Below, piece by piece: positions 3,489-45,127 of a stretch of 64,000 nt of DNA. Both the position numbers and the translations under genes were made by a program. The stretch lies in assembly GCA_964618105.1 (NCBI GenBank), contig CAZUAJ010000001.1:24896-88895 (forward strand), read 5' to 3'. The first letter of the stretch is position 1, and each line of letters opens with the position of its first letter. The notes under the pieces are model-generated. The model was not told where the DNA came from and ran no database searches. It saw only the letters and a list, made by a program, of their open reading frames with translations. Origin of the DNA: an uncultured Clostridium sp. Lineage in GTDB: Bacteria; Bacillota; Clostridia; TANB77; CAG-508.

Positions 3489-4301
3489 TTATAGTAGCAT
3501 GAACAAAAAGTATGCGAATGGTGCAGCAAATATAACACTATCTATTCTATCTAACATTCCACCATGTCCAGGAATTAAATTGCTAAAATCTTTAATACCA
3601 GTATATCTTTTTATACTTGATGCTGCTAAGTCACCAATTTGGCTTAATATGCTTAATATACTTGTTATAATTGCGACACTTAAATAGTTAAATTCTATGC
3701 TAAATACATATTTGCATACAATACTATATAATATTGCTATTATAACTGCTCCTAAAATTCCACCAATACAGCCTTCTATTGTTTTTTTAGGGCTTATTTC
3801 TGTAAAGTGATGTTTGCCAATTGATTTTCCAACAACATAAGCAAATATGTCTGTTCCCCATGCTGCAAAAAATACAAACCATATTAGCAATTTTCCATGT
3901 TCTAAATTTTCATGTATAACAGAAAGATATATTAGGAATATAACTATATAAAATATTCCAAAAAAAGTAACTGCTATATCTATTATATTAACTTTTAAAT
4001 TTTTTATTATAACATACAAAAATAAAATTGCTAAAGTTATTGGTAATAACAGTCCTATTGTTTTTACCGTCCATTCCTTTGGTATTACATGAATTAATGA
4101 AACCATTGCTGCTAATATATATCCCACCCAAGTAATTGGATTTGCCTTTTCACTTGTACGAAATGCTTTGTAAAATTCATGTAAACACATAATGGCTAAT
4201 ATTGCTATTGCTACATCAACTACATATTTATTACCTAAAATTAATATAGCTGCAGCTACTGGAAATAGAACTAGTCCTGATACAACTCTTTTTACGTTCA
4301 T
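3489..4301 (-). CDS. cdsA: Phosphatidate cytidylyltransferase (CDP-diglyceride synthase)
   Basis: Polytopic membrane protein with CdsA-like C-terminal region; conserved position between uppS and rseP. Confidence 0.8.
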   Translation of the reverse strand: MNVKRVVSGLVLFPVAAAILILGNKYVVDVAIAILAIMCLHEFYKAFRTSEKANPITWVGYILAAMVSLIHVIPKEWTVKTIGLLLPITLAILFLYVIIKNLKVNIIDIAVTFFGIFYIVIFLIYLSVIHENLEHGKLLIWFVFFAAWGTDIFAYVVGKSIGKHHFTEISPKKTIEGCIGGILGAVIIAILYSIVCKYVFSIEFNYLSVAIITSILSILSQIGDLAASSIKRYTGIKDFSNLIPGHGGMLDRIDSVIFAAPFAYFLFMLL

Positions 4302-4380
4302 ATTATTTTTTCCTTTCTCGCTTTGCTTGAGAGCATATATAGTTATGAAAGTTTATATTTCTTTCAAACTTATCCTTTTA

Positions 4381-5088
4381 TTATTTACCACCAAATTTAC
4401 GATTTCTATTTTCAAATATTTGTATTGCATCATCTAAATCTTGTTCTGTAAAATCTGGCCAATATTTTTGTACAAAATAAAATTCTGTATAAGCAAGTTG
4501 CCATAAAAGGAAATTGCTCAATCTTTGTTCTCCACTTGTACGAATTAATAAATCTGGTTCTAATTGTCCTGCAGTATAAAGTGAGTTTGAAATTGTTTCT
4601 TCATTAATATCTTCAACATTTATTTTATTTTCTATTACATCTTGAGATATTTTTTGAACTGCTCTTACAATTTCATCTCTTCCACCATAATTAAATGCAA
4701 TATTTAAAACTAAGCCTGTATTATTTTTTGTTTTTTCTAATATTTTGTTTATACTTTTTTGAAGGCCTGAATCTAATTTTGATACATCCCCTAATATATT
4801 TATTTTTATATTATCAAAATCATTACTTGTTAAAAATTCTTCTAAATATTTTTGAAGTAAAATCATTAATGCACCAATTTCGTCCTTAGTTCTTTTCCAA
4901 TTTTCTGTTGAAAAAGCATAAACCGTCAAATATTTTATTCCAAGCTTATTTGCATATTTAGCAATTTTTTTTAGTGTTTCGGCACCTTGTTTATGCCCTA
5001 ATCTGTAATCTAATCCTTGCTCTTTAGCCCATCTACGGTTACCATCCATAATAATGGCAATATGCTTTAGTAATAATTCATTTTCCAT
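4381..5088 (-). CDS. uppS: Undecaprenyl diphosphate synthase
   Basis: MDGNRRWAK motif and cis-prenyltransferase family features. Confidence 0.9.
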   Translation of the reverse strand: MENELLLKHIAIIMDGNRRWAKEQGLDYRLGHKQGAETLKKIAKYANKLGIKYLTVYAFSTENWKRTKDEIGALMILLQKYLEEFLTSNDFDNIKINILGDVSKLDSGLQKSINKILEKTKNNTGLVLNIAFNYGGRDEIVRAVQKISQDVIENKINVEDINEETISNSLYTAGQLEPDLLIRTSGEQRLSNFLLWQLAYTEFYFVQKYWPDFTEQDLDDAIQIFENRNRKFGGK

Positions 5089-14020: not shown

Positions 14021-14034
14021 TGGAGCTTCCAGCC
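14021..14034. repeat. att core copy, the displaced 3' end of tRNA-Thr
   Basis: Identical to 45052-45065. Confidence 0.8.
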
Positions 14035-14468: not shown

Positions 14469-14607
14469 TTAGCCCTTCCTACAACATATATAATATAATT
14501 TTCAGTTTATTAAGGAGAAGGCTTAATTTTATATTATATTAATTATTGCTGATTCACTGCGCATTATTTTCTTCTTTCTATTTTTTAATAATTTGGAGGG
14601 TTTTAAA

Positions 14608-15000
14608 ATGAAAAAAGGATTAACTGTCTTTCCTGCAATATTTACATTTGATGGTAAATATTATAATGTTGACTTTATAGATTTAAAATGCTGTTCAACT
14701 TTCGGAGACAGTATACAAGATGCCTATTTAATGGCTCAAAATGCTATGGGCTTATATTTAGATAATCTTACTAATTTTCCAAGTCCAACTTTAGATGTTT
14801 CAGGTATTTTATTGGATAAAAATCAATTTGTATCATTTGTAAGTATTGACATGGACGAATATCGAAAAAAATTTAACAATAAATCTATAAAGAAGACTTT
14901 ATCAATACCAGAATGGTTGAATTATTTATCTGAAAAAAACAATATAAACTTTTCTCAAGTTTTGCAAGAAGCATTGAAAGAAAAACTAGGTATTGACTAA
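14608..15000 (+). CDS. hicB: HicB family antitoxin (UPF0150 N-domain plus C-terminal DNA-binding tail)
   Basis: FPAIFTFDGKYYNVDFIDLKCCSTFGDSIQDAYLMAQNAMGLYL matches the HicB N-terminal fold; RBS GGAGGG before ATG 14608. Confidence 0.7.
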   Translation: MKKGLTVFPAIFTFDGKYYNVDFIDLKCCSTFGDSIQDAYLMAQNAMGLYLDNLTNFPSPTLDVSGILLDKNQFVSFVSIDMDEYRKKFNNKSIKKTLSIPEWLNYLSEKNNINFSQVLQEALKEKLGID

Positions 15001-36723: not shown

Positions 36724-37392
36724 TTATTTACTTACTATCTCCAAATTTTTATAATAATTATTTTTAATTTTTCCATCTTTATGTATTACTCTTTCATTTT
36801 CTGCTACTGGTCTTATAAAATAATGAGCAACTAGTCTTGATATTGTGGCCATTGTTGCCTTTCCATTATTCCATAAATTAACCTGGTAACCGAATACATT
36901 GTTTCTAAGAGTTTTTAATTTTTTAGTTGTTTTGTTTTTTATTCTACCGTAATTACTAATTAAGTAATTGAACTTTCCAATTTGTTTCCATTCTTCGTTC
37001 TGATAATCTTCCTCTTTGAAATAATCAAATTTAAAATTCCATTCTTTATAGTTATATAAAGGAAATTTCATAATTGTTTCGATAATATCTACTTCAAATA
37101 TTTCTAATAATTCTCCAAATATTTTTTTATTATTTGCTTCAACTTTTGGAATATATTTATTTAATATAGCCTGATTTGTCTTTTTTTCAAGTTCTGCCCA
37201 TTCGTCTTCAGATATATTCTTATAAATTCCAAATAATCCGCTTCTTTTTAATTCTTCAAGTATTTCTTCTATATTCTTAGTACTCGTATGAAGATCCTTT
37301 GCCATTTGACTCTTACCTATTATTTCAATATATTTTGCCATATAAATTTTGTCAAACTCAGTTATCATTTGTTTTTTCTTCATATCTACCAC
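36724..37392 (-). CDS. HNH homing endonuclease (HNH_3/NUMOD4-type) with N-terminal HTH
   Basis: YLISNYGRIKN...GYQVNLWNNGK...RLVAHYFI...HKDG..NN motif. Confidence 0.6.
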   Translation of the reverse strand: MVDMKKKQMITEFDKIYMAKYIEIIGKSQMAKDLHTSTKNIEEILEELKRSGLFGIYKNISEDEWAELEKKTNQAILNKYIPKVEANNKKIFGELLEIFEVDIIETIMKFPLYNYKEWNFKFDYFKEEDYQNEEWKQIGKFNYLISNYGRIKNKTTKKLKTLRNNVFGYQVNLWNNGKATMATISRLVAHYFIRPVAENERVIHKDGKIKNNYYKNLEIVSK

Positions 37393-39441: not shown

Positions 39442-39795
39442 CTATTTGTTCGAGCAAATTTTTTCAACACATAAAATTAGAAATTCTTTATTTGTAATAT
39501 GTTGTTTTGCAAAAATATTACAATATTTTCCATTTTGTAAAGAATGTCTCATTGACTTTTCTACCCTACTTCTTGTTGAGTCATAATACTCTGCATTATA
39601 CATATATATCTCTTCCATTTTAGTTTTGACTATTACTGTTGATTTGACCCCTCCGTTTTTATTACATTTATTTACGACATAACTAATGGCTCTTAACCAA
39701 TAGCAAAATCCTAGAGATGAATGTTTAAAATTCATCTCGTTTAATAATTCTGTTATTTTTCTCTCTATTTGCTTATTCTTTGCATTTTCTTCCAT
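39442..39795 (-). CDS. Spo0A C-terminal (DNA-binding) domain-only protein
   Basis: LGFCYWLRAISYVV, STRSRVEKSMRHSLQNG and KEFLILCVEKI align with the Spo0A_C segments IKGYHYLREAILMV, TASRVERAIRHAIEVAW and SEFIAMVADKL. Confidence 0.55.
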   Translation of the reverse strand: MEENAKNKQIERKITELLNEMNFKHSSLGFCYWLRAISYVVNKCNKNGGVKSTVIVKTKMEEIYMYNAEYYDSTRSRVEKSMRHSLQNGKYCNIFAKQHITNKEFLILCVEKICSNK

Positions 39796-39812: not shown

Positions 39813-40640
39813 CTATTTAGTAATATTAATCATTGGAATATTGTCTCCTAAATTTGTTGTAGGTAGTTGACCATTCCATTTTTCAACTAATTTTTCTTGA
39901 ATTTCTAGTTGTTTTAATTTTAAAGTTTTTTCTGTAATTTCTTTATTTTGTAGAGCCATAACTTCCGCTTCTGCTTTTGCATTTTCTACTTTCTTTTGAT
40001 TATCTACCTGAGCTTTTTCAAGTTCGGCTTTGGCTTTCTCTACGTTTTGTTGAGCTGTTGCTTTTTCTTCAATTGCTTTATTGTATTCTTCTGAAAAGTC
40101 AAAATTCTTAATTGACACTTCTGTTACTTTGATTCCATTTGCTTGTAATTTATTTATTAACATTTCTTTTATAAGTTCTGAAACCTTGTTTCTGTTTGTA
40201 ATAATTTCTTCTGCAGTGAATTGTGAAAAAGATGATTTTACACTTTCTTGAATAGCTGGTGCTATAATAATACTTTCATAATCTTTTCCCACCTGTTGAT
40301 ATAAAGTATTAGCCTTTTCTTTCTCTACTGAATAATTTATTGCTGTATAAATAGCTTTTACAACTTGCATATCTTTTGTAGAACTTTCAAAAGCATTTTC
40401 ATTTTCGTAGATTTGTGTTTTACAGTTTATTTTTACAATTTTCTCTATAAATGGTGTTTTTAGGTTTAGCCCCTCTTGAATAACAGTATCTTGTACTTGT
40501 CCAAATTTTGTTTTCACTCCCACAAAGCCTGTAGGCACTGTTGTTATACTTCCAAATATAATAATTAGCATTATTGCTACTATAAATAAAACAGATATTA
40601 ATATTATTTTTGATTTATCATTCATTTTCTTTTCCTCCAA
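39813..40640 (-). CDS. SPFH/band-7 (prohibitin/HflKC-like) membrane protein
   Basis: N-terminal TM then SPFH core and coiled-coil tail. Confidence 0.7.
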   Translation of the reverse strand: MEEKKMNDKSKIILISVLFIVAIMLIIIFGSITTVPTGFVGVKTKFGQVQDTVIQEGLNLKTPFIEKIVKINCKTQIYENENAFESSTKDMQVVKAIYTAINYSVEKEKANTLYQQVGKDYESIIIAPAIQESVKSSFSQFTAEEIITNRNKVSELIKEMLINKLQANGIKVTEVSIKNFDFSEEYNKAIEEKATAQQNVEKAKAELEKAQVDNQKKVENAKAEAEVMALQNKEITEKTLKLKQLEIQEKLVEKWNGQLPTTNLGDNIPMINITK

Positions 40641-41639: not shown

Positions 41640-41837
41640 TTATTTTTGTTTAAATAGATATTCAATGTTTAAATTAGGAAAATACTTTTCTTTTATTGCA
41701 AACATTTCACTTCTATTCCATTCTGTTTTTCCTAGAAATTTATTTCTTAAAGTTTCATATACATACCCTAAATCCCTTGAGATATCTTTTATAGTTATAT
41801 CTATTCTTGCCATCTCTACTTTTAAATTTTCATACAT
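41640..41837 (-). CDS. Cro-like XRE-family repressor (65 aa)
   Basis: Start at MYENLK with RBS AGGAGGTG; HTH; divergent from cI. Confidence 0.6.
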   Translation of the reverse strand: MYENLKVEMARIDITIKDISRDLGYVYETLRNKFLGKTEWNRSEMFAIKEKYFPNLNIEYLFKQK

Positions 41838-41856
41838 TTTAGCACCTCCTATTACA

Positions 41857-41998
41857 TTTTTTTGTATTTTAAATTTTATTTCAATACAGTTTTCTGTATT
41901 TGTATCTCGATAATAATACAACTTTTTGTATTTGTCAATACTTTTTTTACAAGTTTTTGTATTTTTTTATTTACAATACAAAAAAAATTTGTTATACT
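41857..41998. promoter_or_regulatory. Genetic switch region: four or more direct copies of TTTGTATTT(G/T), one inverted copy, and the cI promoter TTTACA-17-TATACT
   Basis: Read directly. Confidence 0.55.
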
Positions 41999-42034: not shown

Positions 42035-42370
42035 ATGAATTTAGCTGAAAAAATCAATCTACTTATGATGCAAAATGATATAAAAAATCCTAAAGAATTG
42101 TCAGAAAAAATGAATGAAAAAAAATTAAGAATTCCATATACTACATTACTAACTATTATCAATAATGAAGTTCAAGATATAAAATTAGGTACTGCAAGAA
42201 AAATTTGTACATTTTTTAGGATTACACTCGATGAGCTTTTGGATGACAGTATACCTATATTAGATATAACCAAGCCACTAAACACAGATGGTTTAAGTGA
42301 ACAAGATATTAAAGAATTACAAGAATTGATAGAGATAAAAAAGAAATTAAAGAAAAATGAAAGGAAGTAA
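42035..42370 (+). CDS. cI-like XRE-family repressor (111 aa)
   Basis: HTH_XRE in the first 70 aa; RBS AAGGAAGTG. Confidence 0.6.
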   Translation: MNLAEKINLLMMQNDIKNPKELSEKMNEKKLRIPYTTLLTIINNEVQDIKLGTARKICTFFRITLDELLDDSIPILDITKPLNTDGLSEQDIKELQELIEIKKKLKKNERK

Positions 42371-42378
42371 ATAGTATA

Positions 42379-43227
42379 ATGAAAATTAAAAAGGTAATTA
42401 TTGATTTTGTTTTATGTTTCTTTTTTGGTTATTTAGGAATACATAAATTCTATGAAGGAAATAAAAAACTAGGTACTATATATCTATGTACTTTTGGAAT
42501 ATTTGGAATAGGTTGGCTTGTAGATCTTATTATATTATTTTTAGACATATTGAAATATTTTAATAATACAAATGTTAATAATGTTCACTCTAACGTTCCT
42601 ATTAAAGAGACTATTGATATAAATGATATTGAAATTTCTTTTTATGAACCTACTTATTATGAAAGAAAAAAATCTTTATATTCTAAAACTAAAATTAAAA
42701 AATTTGTAGATGACTATGTAGTTTTCGATTTAGAAACAACAGGTCTCAGTCCTGCTAACAATGAAATAATAGAAATAAGTGCGTTAAAATATAAAAATAA
42801 TACATTGATAGATTCATTTAATGAATTAGTAAAACCAGTTACTCCTATTCCTAGTAGAATTACTAAATTAACTGGAATTACAAATGAAGATGTTGCAAAT
42901 TGTGATACTATCAATAAAGTCCTTCCAGATTTTATTGCATTTATAGAAAACTATACTTTAATAGCTCATAACGGAAGTTTTGATCTTGGTTTTATTGAAA
43001 AATATATAAATGAATTAAATATAGATTATAAGGATAATTCTAATATAGATACATTGTATCTTACAAGAAAGTATTTACCTGAGCTAGATAATCATAAGTT
43101 AGAAACTTTAAAAGAATATTTTAAATTAGACAATGCATCACATAGAGCAACTGCTGACTGCGAAACAACTAATGTTATATATCAATATTGTAAAGAAAAA
43201 AAATTAAATAAAATAAGTAAAAAATAA
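42379..43227 (+). CDS. TM2-domain membrane anchor fused to a DnaQ-like DEDDh 3'-5' exonuclease
   Basis: GYLGIHKFYEG..GIFGIGWLVDLIIL matches the TM2 domain; Exo I VVFDLETTGL, Exo II LIAHNGSFDLGFI, Exo III HRATADCETT. Confidence 0.7.
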   Translation: MKIKKVIIDFVLCFFFGYLGIHKFYEGNKKLGTIYLCTFGIFGIGWLVDLIILFLDILKYFNNTNVNNVHSNVPIKETIDINDIEISFYEPTYYERKKSLYSKTKIKKFVDDYVVFDLETTGLSPANNEIIEISALKYKNNTLIDSFNELVKPVTPIPSRITKLTGITNEDVANCDTINKVLPDFIAFIENYTLIAHNGSFDLGFIEKYINELNIDYKDNSNIDTLYLTRKYLPELDNHKLETLKEYFKLDNASHRATADCETTNVIYQYCKEKKLNKISKK

Positions 43228-43380
43228 AAAGGAAATAAGATGTAGTATAAGCTCGCAACCTAACACATTTTATTTCCTTGCAGCAAACACTAAAAGTGAA
43301 TTGCATTCATATTATATATAAATGTATCTTCATTTTCAAGTGTTTGTTAAAAATATTTTAAAAAATGGAGGTATTTTTTT

Positions 43381-44808
43381 ATGAACAAAAAGGGATTTAG
43401 AGCTACTAACGGCGAAGGTTACGTTGGAACAACAATTCAAAAGATAAAAAAGCAATTTGACAACTCTAAAATGTGTAGTATTTGTATGTCTTGTACTAAT
43501 AGATCTATGTGTAATAATCGTATAGATTGGACCAAATGTGAAAAATGCAAGAATTGTAAAGAAGAATGTCTTAAATATTGTGACCGCTTCTATTGTAGAA
43601 AAATGGTACAAGCTCAAATAACTATTGATGGTAAACAAGTTTCTGTTGCTTCAAAAAGAACTCGAAAAGAAAGTATTGAAGAAAAAAAGCGTAAAGAATC
43701 TGATGTGCTTTGTGGCACCTATGTAAAAAAAGACAATAGGACATTATACCATTTTTGTAAAGAAGTGGAAGCAGAAAAAATCGCAGCTAATAAAATTAAG
43801 CAATCTACACAAAATAGAAATAATAATACCTTTGACAAAATAAAAAATGCCGATTTCTTCAGTAAGAGTATACAAAAAACTACTAAAACTGATATAGATA
43901 ATTTTATTAGTCAATATAAATACCTTTCACAGTCCGAATTAGATAAGATTTCAAATATCATTAAAAGCGGTTTCGAAAGAGCCATGGCAAGTGATGTAAT
44001 AACATACAAACAAAATTTTATGAGAAATTATTGTGTTCCCTGCTCCGAAAAACAAGAGAAAGAAGTTGTTGCCTTTGAGCTAGAAGAATTTATAACTTTA
44101 ATAAAATATGTACTCACAACCAATAAATTGATTAAAAGTAGTAAATGTAATTATGATAGTCGCACAATTAGAAATATTATAATTCTTTCATTTTTGTCAC
44201 TTACTCGAATCGGTGAAATGGGAGCACTTGATATAGATAAGCATATTGATTTACAAAAAAAATATATCAGTATTGAAAGAACTCTTACAGAAGATGTTGC
44301 AGGAAAAGTTATAATGGGAACAACAACAAAAACTGGTAATCGCCAGAAAAAGGTTGAAAAAAGAATAATAAACTTCAACATCTTTTCTGAAGAACTTTTT
44401 TTAATGATAATTAGAGATCAAATCGAAAACTCAAGAAATAATATCAATAATATCGAAAATTTGCTTTTCTGTGACAAAAATGGGAACTATATAGTTCCTT
44501 CAGCAATTACTAATATATTTAAACGAATATGTCGTGATGCAGGTGTAAAAGTTAACTTAACAACAGGGTGCTTCATACACATGACACGACATACTGCTAT
44601 ATCTTTTATGATCTCATTAGGGTATGACCTGGTATTTATAACATCTTTTTCTGGTCACAGCAGTATAAAAGAAATTGAACGAACTTATGGCCATATTTTA
44701 AATGATTATAGAAAAAAGAAATTGGAAAATCCGAATTTTCATTACGAAAAAGAAGATATTATTACAAAAGAAATTATAAATTTAGCCCAAAAATGTTATT
44801 TACATTAA
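43381..44808 (+). CDS. int: Tyrosine integrase with long N-terminal Cys-rich region
   Basis: C-terminal RHTAISFMISLGYD...GHSSIKEIERTYGHIL (R..H..R..Y); adjacent to tRNA attL. Confidence 0.8.
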   Translation: MNKKGFRATNGEGYVGTTIQKIKKQFDNSKMCSICMSCTNRSMCNNRIDWTKCEKCKNCKEECLKYCDRFYCRKMVQAQITIDGKQVSVASKRTRKESIEEKKRKESDVLCGTYVKKDNRTLYHFCKEVEAEKIAANKIKQSTQNRNNNTFDKIKNADFFSKSIQKTTKTDIDNFISQYKYLSQSELDKISNIIKSGFERAMASDVITYKQNFMRNYCVPCSEKQEKEVVAFELEEFITLIKYVLTTNKLIKSSKCNYDSRTIRNIIILSFLSLTRIGEMGALDIDKHIDLQKKYISIERTLTEDVAGKVIMGTTTKTGNRQKKVEKRIINFNIFSEELFLMIIRDQIENSRNNINNIENLLFCDKNGNYIVPSAITNIFKRICRDAGVKVNLTTGCFIHMTRHTAISFMISLGYDLVFITSFSGHSSIKEIERTYGHILNDYRKKKLENPNFHYEKEDIITKEIINLAQKCYLH

Positions 44809-45051: not shown

Positions 45052-45127
45052 TGGAGCTTCCAGCCGGAATCGAACCGGCGACCTCAGCCTTACCATGGCT
45101 GCGCTCTACCTACTGAGCTATAGAAGC
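45052..45127 (-). tRNA. tRNA-Thr (anticodon GGT) with encoded CCA
   Basis: Manual cloverleaf: GCTTCTA/TGGAAGC acceptor, D-arm GCTC-AGTAGGTA-GAGC, anticodon loop ATGGTAA, T-arm GCCGG-TTCGATT-CCGGC. Confidence 0.85.

Follow-up and report, generated by a model that had tools for sequence, protein, structure and literature searches.

In E. coli, the membrane-bound nuclease SNIPE (PD-lambda-1) cleaves the DNA of phages while it is being injected; deletion of the transmembrane segment renders SNIPE toxic (Saxton et al, Nature 2026; PMC13190303). [quoted passage not shown] Other mobile elements carry DNases that block transformation, among them IdeA and SxnA of Vibrio ICEs and, from prophages of Campylobacter, Dns and the CJIE2/4 nucleases (PMC12378983).

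Here we describe a gene that places a predicted membrane anchor and a DEDDh exonuclease in this slot of a prophage, contained in a 64,000-nucleotide stretch of DNA (hereafter, the window). A previous sequence-only reading of the window had noted that such slots often carry superinfection-exclusion or defense morons, in agreement with the Sie literature cited above. It had also stated that it knew of no characterized TM2-exonuclease exclusion system. Our literature search returned no paper tying TM2 to an exonuclease or to phage exclusion. SNIPE now provides a mechanistic precedent (PMC13190303).

A membrane anchor fused to a DEDDh exonuclease

The gene and its parts are located as follows.

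42379–43227, plus strand: TM2-DEDDh exonuclease gene, an open reading frame with an ATG start encoding 282 residues (Pfam TM2 and RNase_T)
42388–42531, plus strand: TM2 domain, a two-helix membrane hairpin, residues 4–51 (PF05154, E = 1.2e-15)
42568–42699, plus strand: flexible linker, residues 64–107 (pLDDT below 50 at residues 65–76 and 84–89)
42718–43170, plus strand: DEDDh (DnaQ/PolC-type) 3'-5' exonuclease domain, residues 114–264 (PF00929, E = 1.6e-33)
42727–42735, plus strand: Exo I motif, D117-x-E119
42982–42984, plus strand: Exo II motif, H197-N198...D202
43141–43158, plus strand: Exo III motif, H255-x4-D260

According to Pfam and the AF2 model, the protein begins with a TM2 hairpin, which a disordered linker connects to a DnaQ/PolC-type 3'-5' exonuclease. 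The presence of both Pfam domains in a single 282-residue open reading frame confirms the identity originally proposed for the gene, a predicted membrane anchor fused to a DEDDh exonuclease. Its start methionine is common to the homologs in a family alignment of 28 sequences (43–81% identity), and 32 of the 120 top homolog clusters contain both domains. Mean pairwise identity within the family is highest in the exonuclease (62%), followed by TM2 (49%) and the linker (15%). The AF2 model has a pLDDT of 86.8, exceeding 95 in the exonuclease domain.

The N-terminal assignment to TM2, which had been made from the sequence alone, scores 57.9 bits against PF05154 (gathering cutoff 27.9) and covers profile positions 3–51 of 51. 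AF2 places helices at residues 3–25, 29–38 (short) and 45–63 of this region, with pLDDT values of 81–90, and hydropathy peaks at residues 3–21 and 40–58. The domain thus comprises two helices and a short loop bearing the G..G.H(K/R/H)FY.G motif, and 11 of its residues are invariant across the 28 aligned sequences (C13, G17, G20, H22, F24, G32, Y35, G40, G45, W46 and D49). We predict with confidence from these profiles and the model that it anchors the protein in the membrane. The linker that follows varies from 19 to 73 residues within the family, and in 13 of the 28 relatives a CxxC...CxxC zinc ribbon after TM2 replaces or extends it.

Membrane orientation was assessed from charge distribution. 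The TM2 loop (2.6 K/R and 0.4 D/E) is no less basic than its flanks, leaving the positive-inside rule ambiguous for TM2 itself. In eukaryotic TM2D proteins the loop is thought to be cytosolic, a topology that, if shared, would place the exonuclease outside the cell. The relatives point the other way. Those in which the exonuclease precedes TM2 have no signal peptide; one relative (P0043) combines a basic N-terminal tail, an acidic loop (TEDL) and a basic flank after the transmembrane segment; and the single-pass anchors found in other relatives have uncharged N-termini and post-transmembrane flanks rich in K/R. The zinc ribbon after TM2 in 13 of the 28 relatives points to the same side. From the reversed-order and alternatively anchored relatives we infer that the exonuclease probably faces the cytoplasm.

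The C-terminal domain had been read as carrying all three DEDDh motifs, and it does: PF00929 matches residues 114–264 with 117 bits (gathering cutoff 24), and D117, E119, D202, H255 and D260 are invariant in the 28 relatives and align to the motifs of PolC and DnaQ. The domain also exceeds the cutoff of the DnaQ subfamily-domain model TIGR00573 (94.3 versus 71.5). Its PDB sequence matches include the PolC exonuclease 2p1j (2.5e-26) and DnaQ 8h18 (9e-21). Foldseek likewise returned DnaQ, PolC-exo, DinG-exo and Pol III epsilon as top matches to the model, with RNases ranking below these DNA exonucleases; superposition on 8h18 gave a TM-score to the target of 0.87 and an rmsd of 1.8 Å over 165 columns, showing an RNase H-like α/β fold. 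At the level of NCBIfam equivalogs, all scores fell under their cutoffs (dnaQ_proteo, 86.8 versus 222.7; PolC, 164 versus 873; PRK06807, 203 versus 335), and the host prophage contains no polymerase gene. On these two grounds we rejected an identity as the Pol III epsilon or PolC proofreading subunit. PADLOC matched the domain to the Cas-associated DEDDh model PDLC01247 (1e-39) and the single-gene defense candidate PDC-S48 (5e-23); both matches are confined to the generic exonuclease domain, and PDC-S48 is covered only over its N-terminal 166 of 411 positions.

The lysogeny operon and its prophage

The surrounding features are listed in genomic order.

14021–14034, unstranded: second att core copy TGGAGCTTCCAGCC at the distal prophage end (direct repeat)
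41640–41840, minus strand: Cro-like regulator, divergent from the repressor (phrog_4583, transcriptional repressor)
41910–41998, unstranded: divergent promoter-like sites (consensus scan)
42035–42370, plus strand: repressor-like HTH protein of 111 residues, first gene of the rightward lysogeny operon (HTH_26, E = 1.5e-6)
43228–43380, unstranded: structured spacer with a minus-strand promoter-like site and a hairpin with a T-run (RNA fold z −6.46)
43381–44808, plus strand: tyrosine integrase of 475 residues (PF00589, E = 9e-16; phrog_1 integrase, E = 1e-36)
45052–45127, minus strand: tRNA-Thr(GGT) (ARAGORN; Rfam tRNA, 69 bits)

The exonuclease ATG at 42379 lies exactly 8 nt after the repressor stop codon (42368–42370), as reported at the outset, and no terminator-like site separates the two genes. 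The upstream gene had been called a cI-like repressor. Its product is indeed a repressor-like HTH protein, 46% identical to the repressor of the related module L184, but at 111 residues it has no S24 peptidase domain. The integrase follows the exonuclease on the same strand, 153 nt downstream, again matching the initial description. No antitoxin or sensor partner gene is present in the window operon, and the sole Rfam match is the tRNA, with none in the operon.

Upstream, the Cro-like regulator probably starts at an internal ATG (MYENLKVEMARID...), and homologous open reading frames occupy the same position in L104 and L106. Promoter-like sites precede the repressor on the plus strand (TTTACA-17-TATACT with TG) and cro on the minus strand (TTGACA-17-TATTAT). 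As the scan found 30 sites versus 27.9 expected from shuffles, that is, no enrichment, these are pattern matches that fit the gene layout.

The operon belongs to a complete siphovirus-type prophage of ~31 kb, inserted in tRNA-Thr and spanning about 14035–45065. The att core is the 3' end of tRNA-Thr(GGT) (45052–45065), and terminase, portal, capsid, tape measure, tail and lysin genes lie between the two att copies. Replication genes are limited to those for DnaD-like loader and initiator proteins. We also considered whether this prophage is of the HNH/cos type, whose 3'-overhang ends would suit the exonuclease ideally; the idea was dropped, as ~4.5 kb separate the HNH gene (36724–37392) from the terminase genes.

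The spacer between exonuclease and integrase is a separate observation. It is 83% identical to its counterparts in L001 and L184 although the flanking genes diverge, is present in nine further loci, and its hairpin carries compensatory changes in 6 of 19 pairs. A minus-strand RNA of ~85–90 nt is predicted at 43215–43305.

One exonuclease core on many anchors in the same slot

An anchored exonuclease lies after the repressor, before the recombinase and on the repressor strand in 11 independent lysogeny modules: the window and ten others (L001, L003, L007, L009, L010, L095, L097, L099, L104 and L106). Their repressor cassettes are of the HTH_26, HTH_3/19, S24 or HTH + ImmA type, and their recombinases of the tyrosine or serine type. 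The exonuclease start overlaps or abuts the upstream gene in five to six loci (L001, L097, L099, L003, L010 and L106). The gene behaves as an accessory moron: of the modules with the most closely related integrases, L185 has nothing in this slot, and L184 has a soluble, 27%-identical exonuclease with a BRCT-like C-terminus.

The anchors are far more diverse than the nuclease. A homolog search gave 4,435 matches below 1e-30. Among the best 150 representatives at 50% identity, 41 combine TM2 with the exonuclease, 57 have another hydrophobic segment and 48 have none. Clustering of the trimmed anchor segments gave at least 28 dissimilar clusters, a lower bound because low-complexity linkers cause over-merging. 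The exonuclease precedes TM2 in five representatives; the flanking sequence of one reversed-order protein (P0174, L102) was too short to be informative. Since the same exonuclease occurs on many unrelated anchors, and sometimes on none, the design does not depend on TM2 as such. The unit of interest, judged from this comparison, is the putatively tethered DEDDh exonuclease in the lysogeny slot rather than the TM2 fusion specifically. Tethering in turn is not obligatory for the function of the slot, whatever that may be, given that about one-third of the close relatives are anchorless and that a soluble exonuclease with a BRCT-like tail occupies the same position.

As to origin, the core is 55–60% identical to an anchorless 180-residue exonuclease found in a housekeeping context. 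By its context, this relative is a host housekeeping gene, and the core a derivative of such a housekeeping exonuclease.

No full-length fusion turned up in searches covering 50,697 deposited phage genomes and 72,556 plasmids, which leaves no cultured system to hand. In IMG/VR, an alignment-seeded search retrieved relatives, and single-sequence searches almost nothing. A genome-contig search seeded on the exonuclease motifs returned 80 best loci that were all anchorless or unmatched at the N-terminus, and is therefore uninformative on the taxonomic spread of the fusion. What is new here is the conservation of the slot across 11 modules, the presence of one core on TM2, unrelated anchors and reversed TM2, the variable content of the slot, the anchorless relative as a host housekeeping gene, and the probable cytoplasmic placement of the nuclease suggested by reversed-order and alternatively anchored relatives.

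Proposed function and alternatives

We propose, with a probability of roughly 45%, that the gene product is made in the lysogen, is tethered to the membrane and degrades incoming DNA from its free 3' ends, in analogy to SNIPE but with no relation to it. In favor of this reading are the domain architecture with its intact catalytic residues, the conserved operon position, the accessory behavior, the convergent tethering to diverse anchors, the orientation signals in the relatives, the housekeeping origin of the core, the SNIPE and Sie precedents and the PADLOC matches. As a moron, the gene would be co-transcribed with the repressor in the lysogen. The TM2 hairpin would anchor the product in the cytoplasmic membrane, and the flexible tether, 19–73 residues long in the family, would hold the DnaQ/PolC-type exonuclease on the cytoplasmic face. 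There, linear DNA coming through the membrane would expose a free 3' end to the enzyme, the targets being mainly superinfecting phage genomes and possibly transforming ssDNA; the attack would destroy the ends required for circularization or recombination and open the DNA to further degradation; exclusion of the invader would be the presumed outcome. Discrimination between self and non-self would be intrinsic, because an exonuclease requires a free end and the circular chromosome has none. The tether would give the enzyme first access at the entry site while keeping it off replication forks and off the concatemers of its own prophage after induction. DnaQ-type exonucleases are usually distributive and favor ssDNA or frayed 3' ends, a habit that makes their power to stop a 30–50-kb dsDNA genome questionable.

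The alternative that survives best, although we consider it unlikely, retains this anatomy and changes the target: the tethered enzyme would degrade transforming ssDNA leaving ComEC, so that alleles lacking the prophage could not recombine with the chromosome and delete it. Transforming DNA enters Gram-positive cells 3' end first, and 3'-5' polarity would suit this leading end. The transformation-blocking DNases of mobile elements introduced above offer precedents, even if those known are secreted or periplasmic endonucleases of another fold (PMC12378983), and the underlying conflict over chromosomal curing is established (PMC4774983, PMC12637031). One prophage (L007) adjoins comEC/comEA, which is an anecdote only. 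The likely hosts, uncultured gut Clostridia, are not known to be naturally competent, and SNIPE, the closest mechanistic analogue, left plasmid transformation unaffected (PMC13190303).

Also unlikely, and ranked next, is an accessory role in lysogeny maintenance or DNA metabolism, in which the enzyme would trim 3' ssDNA in the lysogen, for example damping RecA-ssDNA signaling and spontaneous induction or aiding repair, or would act as a proofreading subunit. Deposited phages of Clostridium and Clostridioides have exonuclease-domain homologs that carry the annotation DNA polymerase or Pol III epsilon, PHROG 192 is named "DNA polymerase exonuclease subunit", the core derives from a housekeeping exonuclease, and the BRCT-like tail of the soluble variant that fills this slot in L184 hints that it is directed to DNA or the replisome. 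Yet every NCBIfam equivalog lies under its cutoff, and the prophage encodes DnaD-like loader and initiator proteins but no polymerase. A replisome or repair factor would be ill served by a membrane tether, quite the reverse of its needs, and placement in the repressor operon, outside the replication module, speaks against a role in lytic replication.

We regard as improbable an abortive-infection or toxin effector that kills the lysogen once invading ends are sensed, either through membrane damage by TM2 oligomers or through destruction of host DNA by a released exonuclease. Transmembrane effectors are common among Abi-type systems, the exonuclease is followed by PemK-like toxin genes in L003 and L099, and L097 and L099 have Abi_2, AbiEii and Mrr genes nearby; the window operon itself is devoid of a partner antitoxin or sensor. 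The invariant TM2 residues, including the membrane-embedded D49 and W46, hint at something beyond passive anchoring, but the replacement of TM2 by many unrelated anchors favors simple tethering, and strictly conserved catalytic residues suit an enzyme rather than a sensor.

Least probable of all is a nuclease that faces outward onto extracellular DNA (biofilm matrix or transforming DNA) or that weakens the immune signaling of the host by hydrolyzing RNA or nucleotide second messengers: net positive charge is highest in the TM1-TM2 loop, weakly favoring loop-in, termini-out, and the DEDDh superfamily includes RNase T, Orn and ERI1, which appear here as lower-ranked structural matches, whereas the reversed-order proteins without signal peptide would place the exonuclease and both TM2 ends in the cytoplasm, the charges of the other anchors fit N-out/C-in, zinc ribbons flank the exonuclease, DNA exonucleases are the best sequence and structure matches, and diffusible signals could be hydrolyzed without a tether.

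Returning to exclusion at DNA entry, a broader claim is possible but doubtful: tethered DEDDh exonucleases may form a widespread, repeatedly invented class of prophage immunity in Bacillota, with the free 3' end at the inner membrane face as sole cue and the anchor or tail (TM2, another transmembrane segment, zinc ribbon or BRCT-like) setting the site and the entry route, phage injection or ComEC uptake. If true, this would provide an end-sensing counterpart of SNIPE that dispenses with recognition of sequence, modification or a partner protein. Should the proposed mechanism itself hold, nucleases acting at the entry site would have arisen in a second family of separate evolutionary origin. 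The principle known from SNIPE in E. coli would then apply to Gram-positive gut bacteria and to exonucleases as well as endonucleases, under a simpler rule for self and non-self, a free DNA end at the membrane. One nuclease core on dozens of unrelated anchors, in both domain orders and in the repressor–integrase slot, argues strongly for function. Phage therapy and the engineering of gut Clostridia would also be affected, since morons of this kind could prevent the delivery of phages or DNA. The analysis also corrects the common misannotation of these phage genes as "DNA polymerase III epsilon".

Comparison with known systems

Like SNIPE, the TM2-exonuclease is the product of a single gene with a predicted N-terminal membrane anchor and a presumably cytoplasmic nuclease. 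In both, the anchors vary widely among homologs and the nuclease is the best-conserved part, and the location of DNA entry is the proposed cue for telling foreign from self. The two are not homologous. SNIPE consists of one transmembrane segment, DUF4041, which binds DNA and the tape measure protein, and a GIY-YIG endonuclease; the protein described here, which joins its DEDDh exonuclease to a TM2 hairpin through a disordered linker, gave no Pfam or PADLOC match to DUF4041 or GIY-YIG. It is also prophage-borne, lies in a repressor operon and belongs to Gram-positive-type hosts, and, if end-dependent as predicted, it would require no auto-inhibition.

With Sie2009, Ltp and SieF7/2AB the gene shares the repressor–integrase slot of the lysogeny module, predicted membrane association, presumed expression in the lysogen and accessory status (PMC3952083, PMC7693887). 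The Sie proteins have no enzymatic activity; they are small membrane proteins or lipoproteins and prevent injection of DNA, for instance by binding the tape measure protein. The TM2-exonuclease contains a full nuclease domain and resembles none of them in sequence.

DnaQ, PolC and DinG share its fold and all five catalytic residues at 26–36% identity, with TM-scores of 0.87 to S. thermophilus DnaQ (8h18) and 0.79 to the T. maritima PolC exonuclease (2p1j). Those proteins are soluble replisome or repair modules; the TM2-exonuclease is predicted to be membrane-tethered and has no polymerase, helicase or clamp-binding parts.

The strong domain-level HMM matches to PDLC01247 (Cas2-DEDDh) and PDC-S48 show that DEDDh exonucleases are recruited into defense contexts. 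Neither has a membrane anchor, and, unlike PDLC01247, the TM2-exonuclease has no Cas2 fusion and no cas gene in its operon, its neighbors being the repressor and the integrase.

Finally, IdeA/SxnA of Vibrio ICEs and Dns of Campylobacter CJIE1 are, as proposed here, nucleases of integrated elements that destroy incoming DNA at the envelope (PMC12378983). They differ in being secreted or periplasmic, non-specific endonucleases of another fold from Gram-negative bacteria, whereas the present enzyme is a predicted exonuclease that probably faces the cytoplasm.

Domain architecture and fold

42379-43227, plus strand: TM2-exonuclease open reading frame, ATG start, 282 aa

The sequence-only reading placed a TM2 domain at the N-terminus of this protein and DEDDh exonuclease motifs in its C-terminal part, and Pfam profiles bore out both, assigning TM2 to aa 4–51 (57.9 bits, cutoff 27.9) and RNase_T/DEDDh exonuclease to aa 114–264 (117 bits, cutoff 24). 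By sequence, the top solved-structure match was the T. maritima PolC exonuclease domain (2p1j, E 2.5e-26); the further best structure-database matches were S. thermophilus DnaQ (8h18), PolC, the DinG N-terminal exonuclease, Cas2-DEDDh and E. coli epsilon. Across an alignment of 28 TM2-exonuclease proteins, 43–81% identical to the window protein, the exonuclease residues D117, E119, H197, N198, D202, H255 and D260 are invariant, as is the TM2 signature C13 G17 G20 H22 F24 G32 Y35 G40 G45 W46 D49. The AlphaFold2 model built on this alignment has a mean pLDDT of 86.8 (TM2 hairpin 81–90, exonuclease >95), with aa 65–89 disordered. Foldseek analysis against the PDB returned exclusively DEDDh DNA exonucleases as top matches (8h18, TM-score to target 0.87, rmsd 1.8 Å), with RNase T, ERI1 and TREX ranked lower. 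By profiles, motifs and fold alike, the protein genuinely belongs to both the TM2 and the DEDDh families.

Conservation differs by region, at 62% in the exonuclease, 49% in TM2 and 15% in the linker, whose length varies across the family between 19 and 73 aa. Such a variable linker between conserved modules is the signature of a flexible tether joining two constrained units. The alignment and model show that an intact DnaQ-type active site sits on this tether behind a membrane hairpin.

Interchangeable anchors and origin

In 13 of the 28 aligned members, a zinc ribbon (CxxC-x11-13-CxxC) directly follows TM2. The closest relatives lacking TM2 have exonucleases 55–72% identical behind different hydrophobic N-termini: KKWYEQT followed by ~29 hydrophobic residues (P0011, P0035 and P0037), KKRNIWFHIIVGY... 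with a weak DUF4234 match (P0027, P0034 and P0071), or a two-helix hairpin with a TEDL loop (P0043). An exhaustive profile search over 1.84 billion representatives yielded 63,044 matches, 4,435 of them below 1e-30; the best 150 of the 63,044 comprised 41 TM2-exonucleases, 57 exonucleases with another hydrophobic segment, 48 anchorless proteins and 4 multi-TM2 proteins. A crude test that over-merges divides the anchors into no fewer than 28 clusters dissimilar from one another. These comparisons show an interchangeable anchor and a tether that evolved repeatedly and convergently. Five representatives (P0167, P0174, P0220, P0242 and P0249) have the reversed order, with the exonuclease first and TM2 at the extreme C-terminus. 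Seven TM2-exonucleases of 390–436 aa (P0124, P0150, P0160, P0172, P0193, P0208 and P0241) possess an extra, uncharacterised region of ~120–150 aa C-terminal to the exonuclease.

The gene for the anchorless homolog P0085 (180 aa, 59% identical) is flanked by a GTPase gene and the rimP-nusA genes and lies 3' of an mraZ-PBP cluster, a host housekeeping setting. Given this setting, the prophage gene looks like a captured host exonuclease, to which the tether was apparently added later.

Membrane topology

Mean K+R/D+E counts in TM2 proteins (N-tail, 2.2/1.0; loop, 2.6/0.4; post-TM2 flank, 2.5/1.6) leave the positive-inside rule without a decision for TM2 itself. In the reversed-order proteins, the exonuclease stands at the very start and an N-terminal hydrophobic segment is absent; such an exonuclease cannot be exported, which would place both ends of the TM2 hairpin in the cytoplasm. 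In P0043 the N-tail is +4, the TEDL loop acidic and the post-TM flank basic. Single-pass anchors have an uncharged hydrophobic start followed by a K/R-rich segment, sharing the N-out/C-in charge pattern experimentally shown for SNIPE, the membrane-bound anti-phage nuclease of E. coli. Zinc ribbons, finally, flank the exonuclease domain. Judged from sequence, these four independent observations favour a cytoplasmic exonuclease domain.

Host prophage and lysogeny operon

14021-14034 and 45052-45065: 14-nt repeat TGGAGCTTCCAGCC, identical to the 3' end of tRNA-Thr(GGT)
41640-41840, minus strand: cro-like gene, facing the rightward operon
42035-42370, plus strand: HTH repressor gene, first in the rightward operon, followed by the TM2-exonuclease and tyrosine integrase genes
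43381-44808, plus strand: tyrosine integrase gene, last of the rightward operon
45052-45127, minus strand: tRNA-Thr(GGT)

The siphovirus-type prophage around the TM2-exonuclease gene is complete, with terminase, portal, major head, tape measure, tail protein and peptidase-type lysin genes on the minus strand. The two copies of TGGAGCTTCCAGCC delimit ~31 kb, beyond which lie host genes (sigma factor, ligA). GC content is 25–31%, and source names on integrase homologs include Intestinibacter sp. and Clostridia bacterium; together these indicate a low-GC member of the Bacillota as host, probably a gut bacterium resembling Clostridium. ORF coordinates confirmed the 8-nt gap between the repressor stop and the exonuclease ATG, as well as the integrase downstream on the same strand, both of which had been read from the sequence. 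The interval from cro to the repressor gene contains divergent promoter-like sites, and no terminator-like site was found in the repressor-exonuclease interval, in both cases by pattern scans whose matches were not enriched over shuffles.

The far prophage end, adjoining attL, has a second moron locus: a HicB-like antitoxin-family protein (14593-15000, plus strand; phrog_497, E 6.5e-29) whose gene runs on the strand opposite to those for lysis and structure. A 117-aa early-region protein (39442-39795, minus strand) matches the DNA-binding C-terminal domain of Spo0A (PF08769, E 1.5e-7), which recurs in the early regions of the related prophages L001, L095 and L184, and this recurrence suggests possible phage interference with the host sporulation regulon. 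The early gene at 39813-40640 (minus strand) encodes a 275-aa SPFH/Band-7 membrane protein (PF01145, E 7e-32; phrog_200). SPFH proteins are uncommon cargo for phages.

A conserved slot with accessory content

PF05154 and PF00929 occur together in 32 of the 120 top homolog clusters, several with an added zinc ribbon. The full-length fusion was absent from 50,697 deposited phage genomes and 72,556 plasmids; exonuclease-only homologs in these collections bear the annotation 'DNA polymerase / Pol III epsilon' and likewise occupy moron-like positions, for example adjoining attR in C. tetani phage phiCT9441A.

We checked the genomic context of the TM2-exonucleases P0004, P0019, P0032, P0009 and P0025 (49–77% identical) and of the IMG/VR prophage contigs L104 and L106. 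At all TM2-exonuclease loci checked, the gene lies on the repressor strand, 3' of the repressor and 5' of the recombinase, and points away from cro and the early genes. Repressor types comprise HTH_26, HTH_3/19, S24 LexA-like and HTH paired with a metalloprotease of ImmA type; L104 has a large serine recombinase, and the other loci have tyrosine integrases from various families. The exonuclease start codon overlaps or abuts the preceding gene in L001, L003, L010 and L106. Three relatives with non-TM2 anchors have the same slot (L095, L097 with a serine recombinase, and L099). The survey of other prophages that the sequence-only reading had called for found the exonuclease between repressor and recombinase in every anchored locus checked, that is, in 11 independent modules including the window.

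Among the closest integrase relatives, L185 (integrase 61% identical) has an empty slot, the repressor gene being followed directly by the integrase gene. In L184, the closest related lysogeny module (integrase 69%, repressor 46% identical), the slot holds a different, soluble DEDDh exonuclease (3919-4845, 308 aa, 27% identity) with a BRCT-like C-terminus. The empty slot and the substituted exonuclease mark the TM2-exonuclease gene as accessory, and L184 suggests that what is selected for in this slot is exonuclease activity, to which different targeting modules can be joined. These loci show tight coupling of the exonuclease gene to the repressor gene together with moron-like presence and absence. 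Convergent anchoring, reversed-order fusions and the strictly conserved slot are the most informative new facts.

In the unrelated prophages L003 (6911-7567) and L099 (2541-3083), an unusually long PemK-like toxin-domain protein (180–218 aa) is encoded directly after the anchored exonuclease and before int, its gene overlapping the exonuclease gene in L003; a functional partner and a neighbouring defence gene are both possible readings.

A structured spacer upstream of int

43228-43380, non-coding: exonuclease-integrase spacer, 153 nt, directly upstream of int
43229-43279, minus strand: hairpin, then T-run; 6 of 19 pairs compensatory in 7 loci, pairing kept
43339-43311, minus strand: promoter-like TTGAAA-17-TATAAT, invariant, with an inverted repeat on its flanks

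The spacer has an unusually stable fold (z -6.46) and no Rfam match. Identity across the window, L001 (6849-7016) and L184 (4844-5000) is 83%, with long invariant blocks, and the spacer is more conserved than the flanking genes (L001 integrase, 19%; L184 exonuclease, 27%). In 9 further loci, the integrase start codon marks the end of the spacer or of its integrase-proximal two-thirds; loci with the element include L107, L186-L188, L199, L095 and the empty-slot L185. The element goes with the integrase gene, not with the exonuclease. Its sequence suggests a putative minus-strand small RNA of ~85–90 nt, or a terminator plus an int operator.

Proposed function

We read the protein, with a probability of roughly 0.45, as a lysogen-made, membrane-tethered exonuclease that would attack the 3' ends of entering DNA. 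Made in the lysogen and positioned on the cytoplasmic face, it would degrade free 3' ends of DNA crossing the membrane, and its end-dependence would spare the circular chromosome. Being tethered, the enzyme would stay clear of forks and of concatemers of its own prophage, and at the entry pore it would be the first to reach the DNA. This entry-site model has two precedents in its favour. SNIPE, a TM + DUF4041 + GIY-YIG protein, cleaves phage DNA during injection, becomes toxic on TM deletion and has very diverse anchors among its homologs (PMC13190303); in Gram-positive temperate phages, membrane-associated superinfection exclusion (Sie) genes lie between integrase and repressor and are transcribed during lysogeny (PMC3952083, PMC7693887). 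No publication dealing with a TM2-exonuclease, or with any tethered DEDDh in phage exclusion, turned up in the literature searches. Architecture, conserved slot and convergent anchors strengthen the anatomy and genomic logic of the earlier interpretation; its functional part, exclusion or defence, stays a proposal.

An anti-transformation or anti-curing device would suit the enzyme's polarity, and mobile-element nucleases that block transformation are on record (PMC12378983), but those are secreted endonucleases, and we consider this role unlikely. Existing annotations and the soluble slot variant with its BRCT-like tail hint at lysogeny maintenance, repair or proofreading; yet the protein fails the equivalog cutoffs, no polymerase is encoded by the prophage and such work sits poorly with a membrane tether, leaving this role improbable. 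The interchangeability of the anchors makes an abortive-infection or toxin effector very unlikely. The topology arguments and the DNA exonucleases among the structural neighbours speak against an extracellular or RNA/oligonucleotide nuclease, which we regard as most improbable of all.

Comparison with known systems

A Cas-associated DEDDh protein was ruled out by the lack of cas genes, and identity with Pol III epsilon or PolC by scores below the equivalog cutoffs. The window protein has neither DUF4041 nor GIY-YIG and is not a SNIPE member, although its mode of action may be similar. The genomic niche that the TM2-exonuclease occupies is that of the Sie genes.
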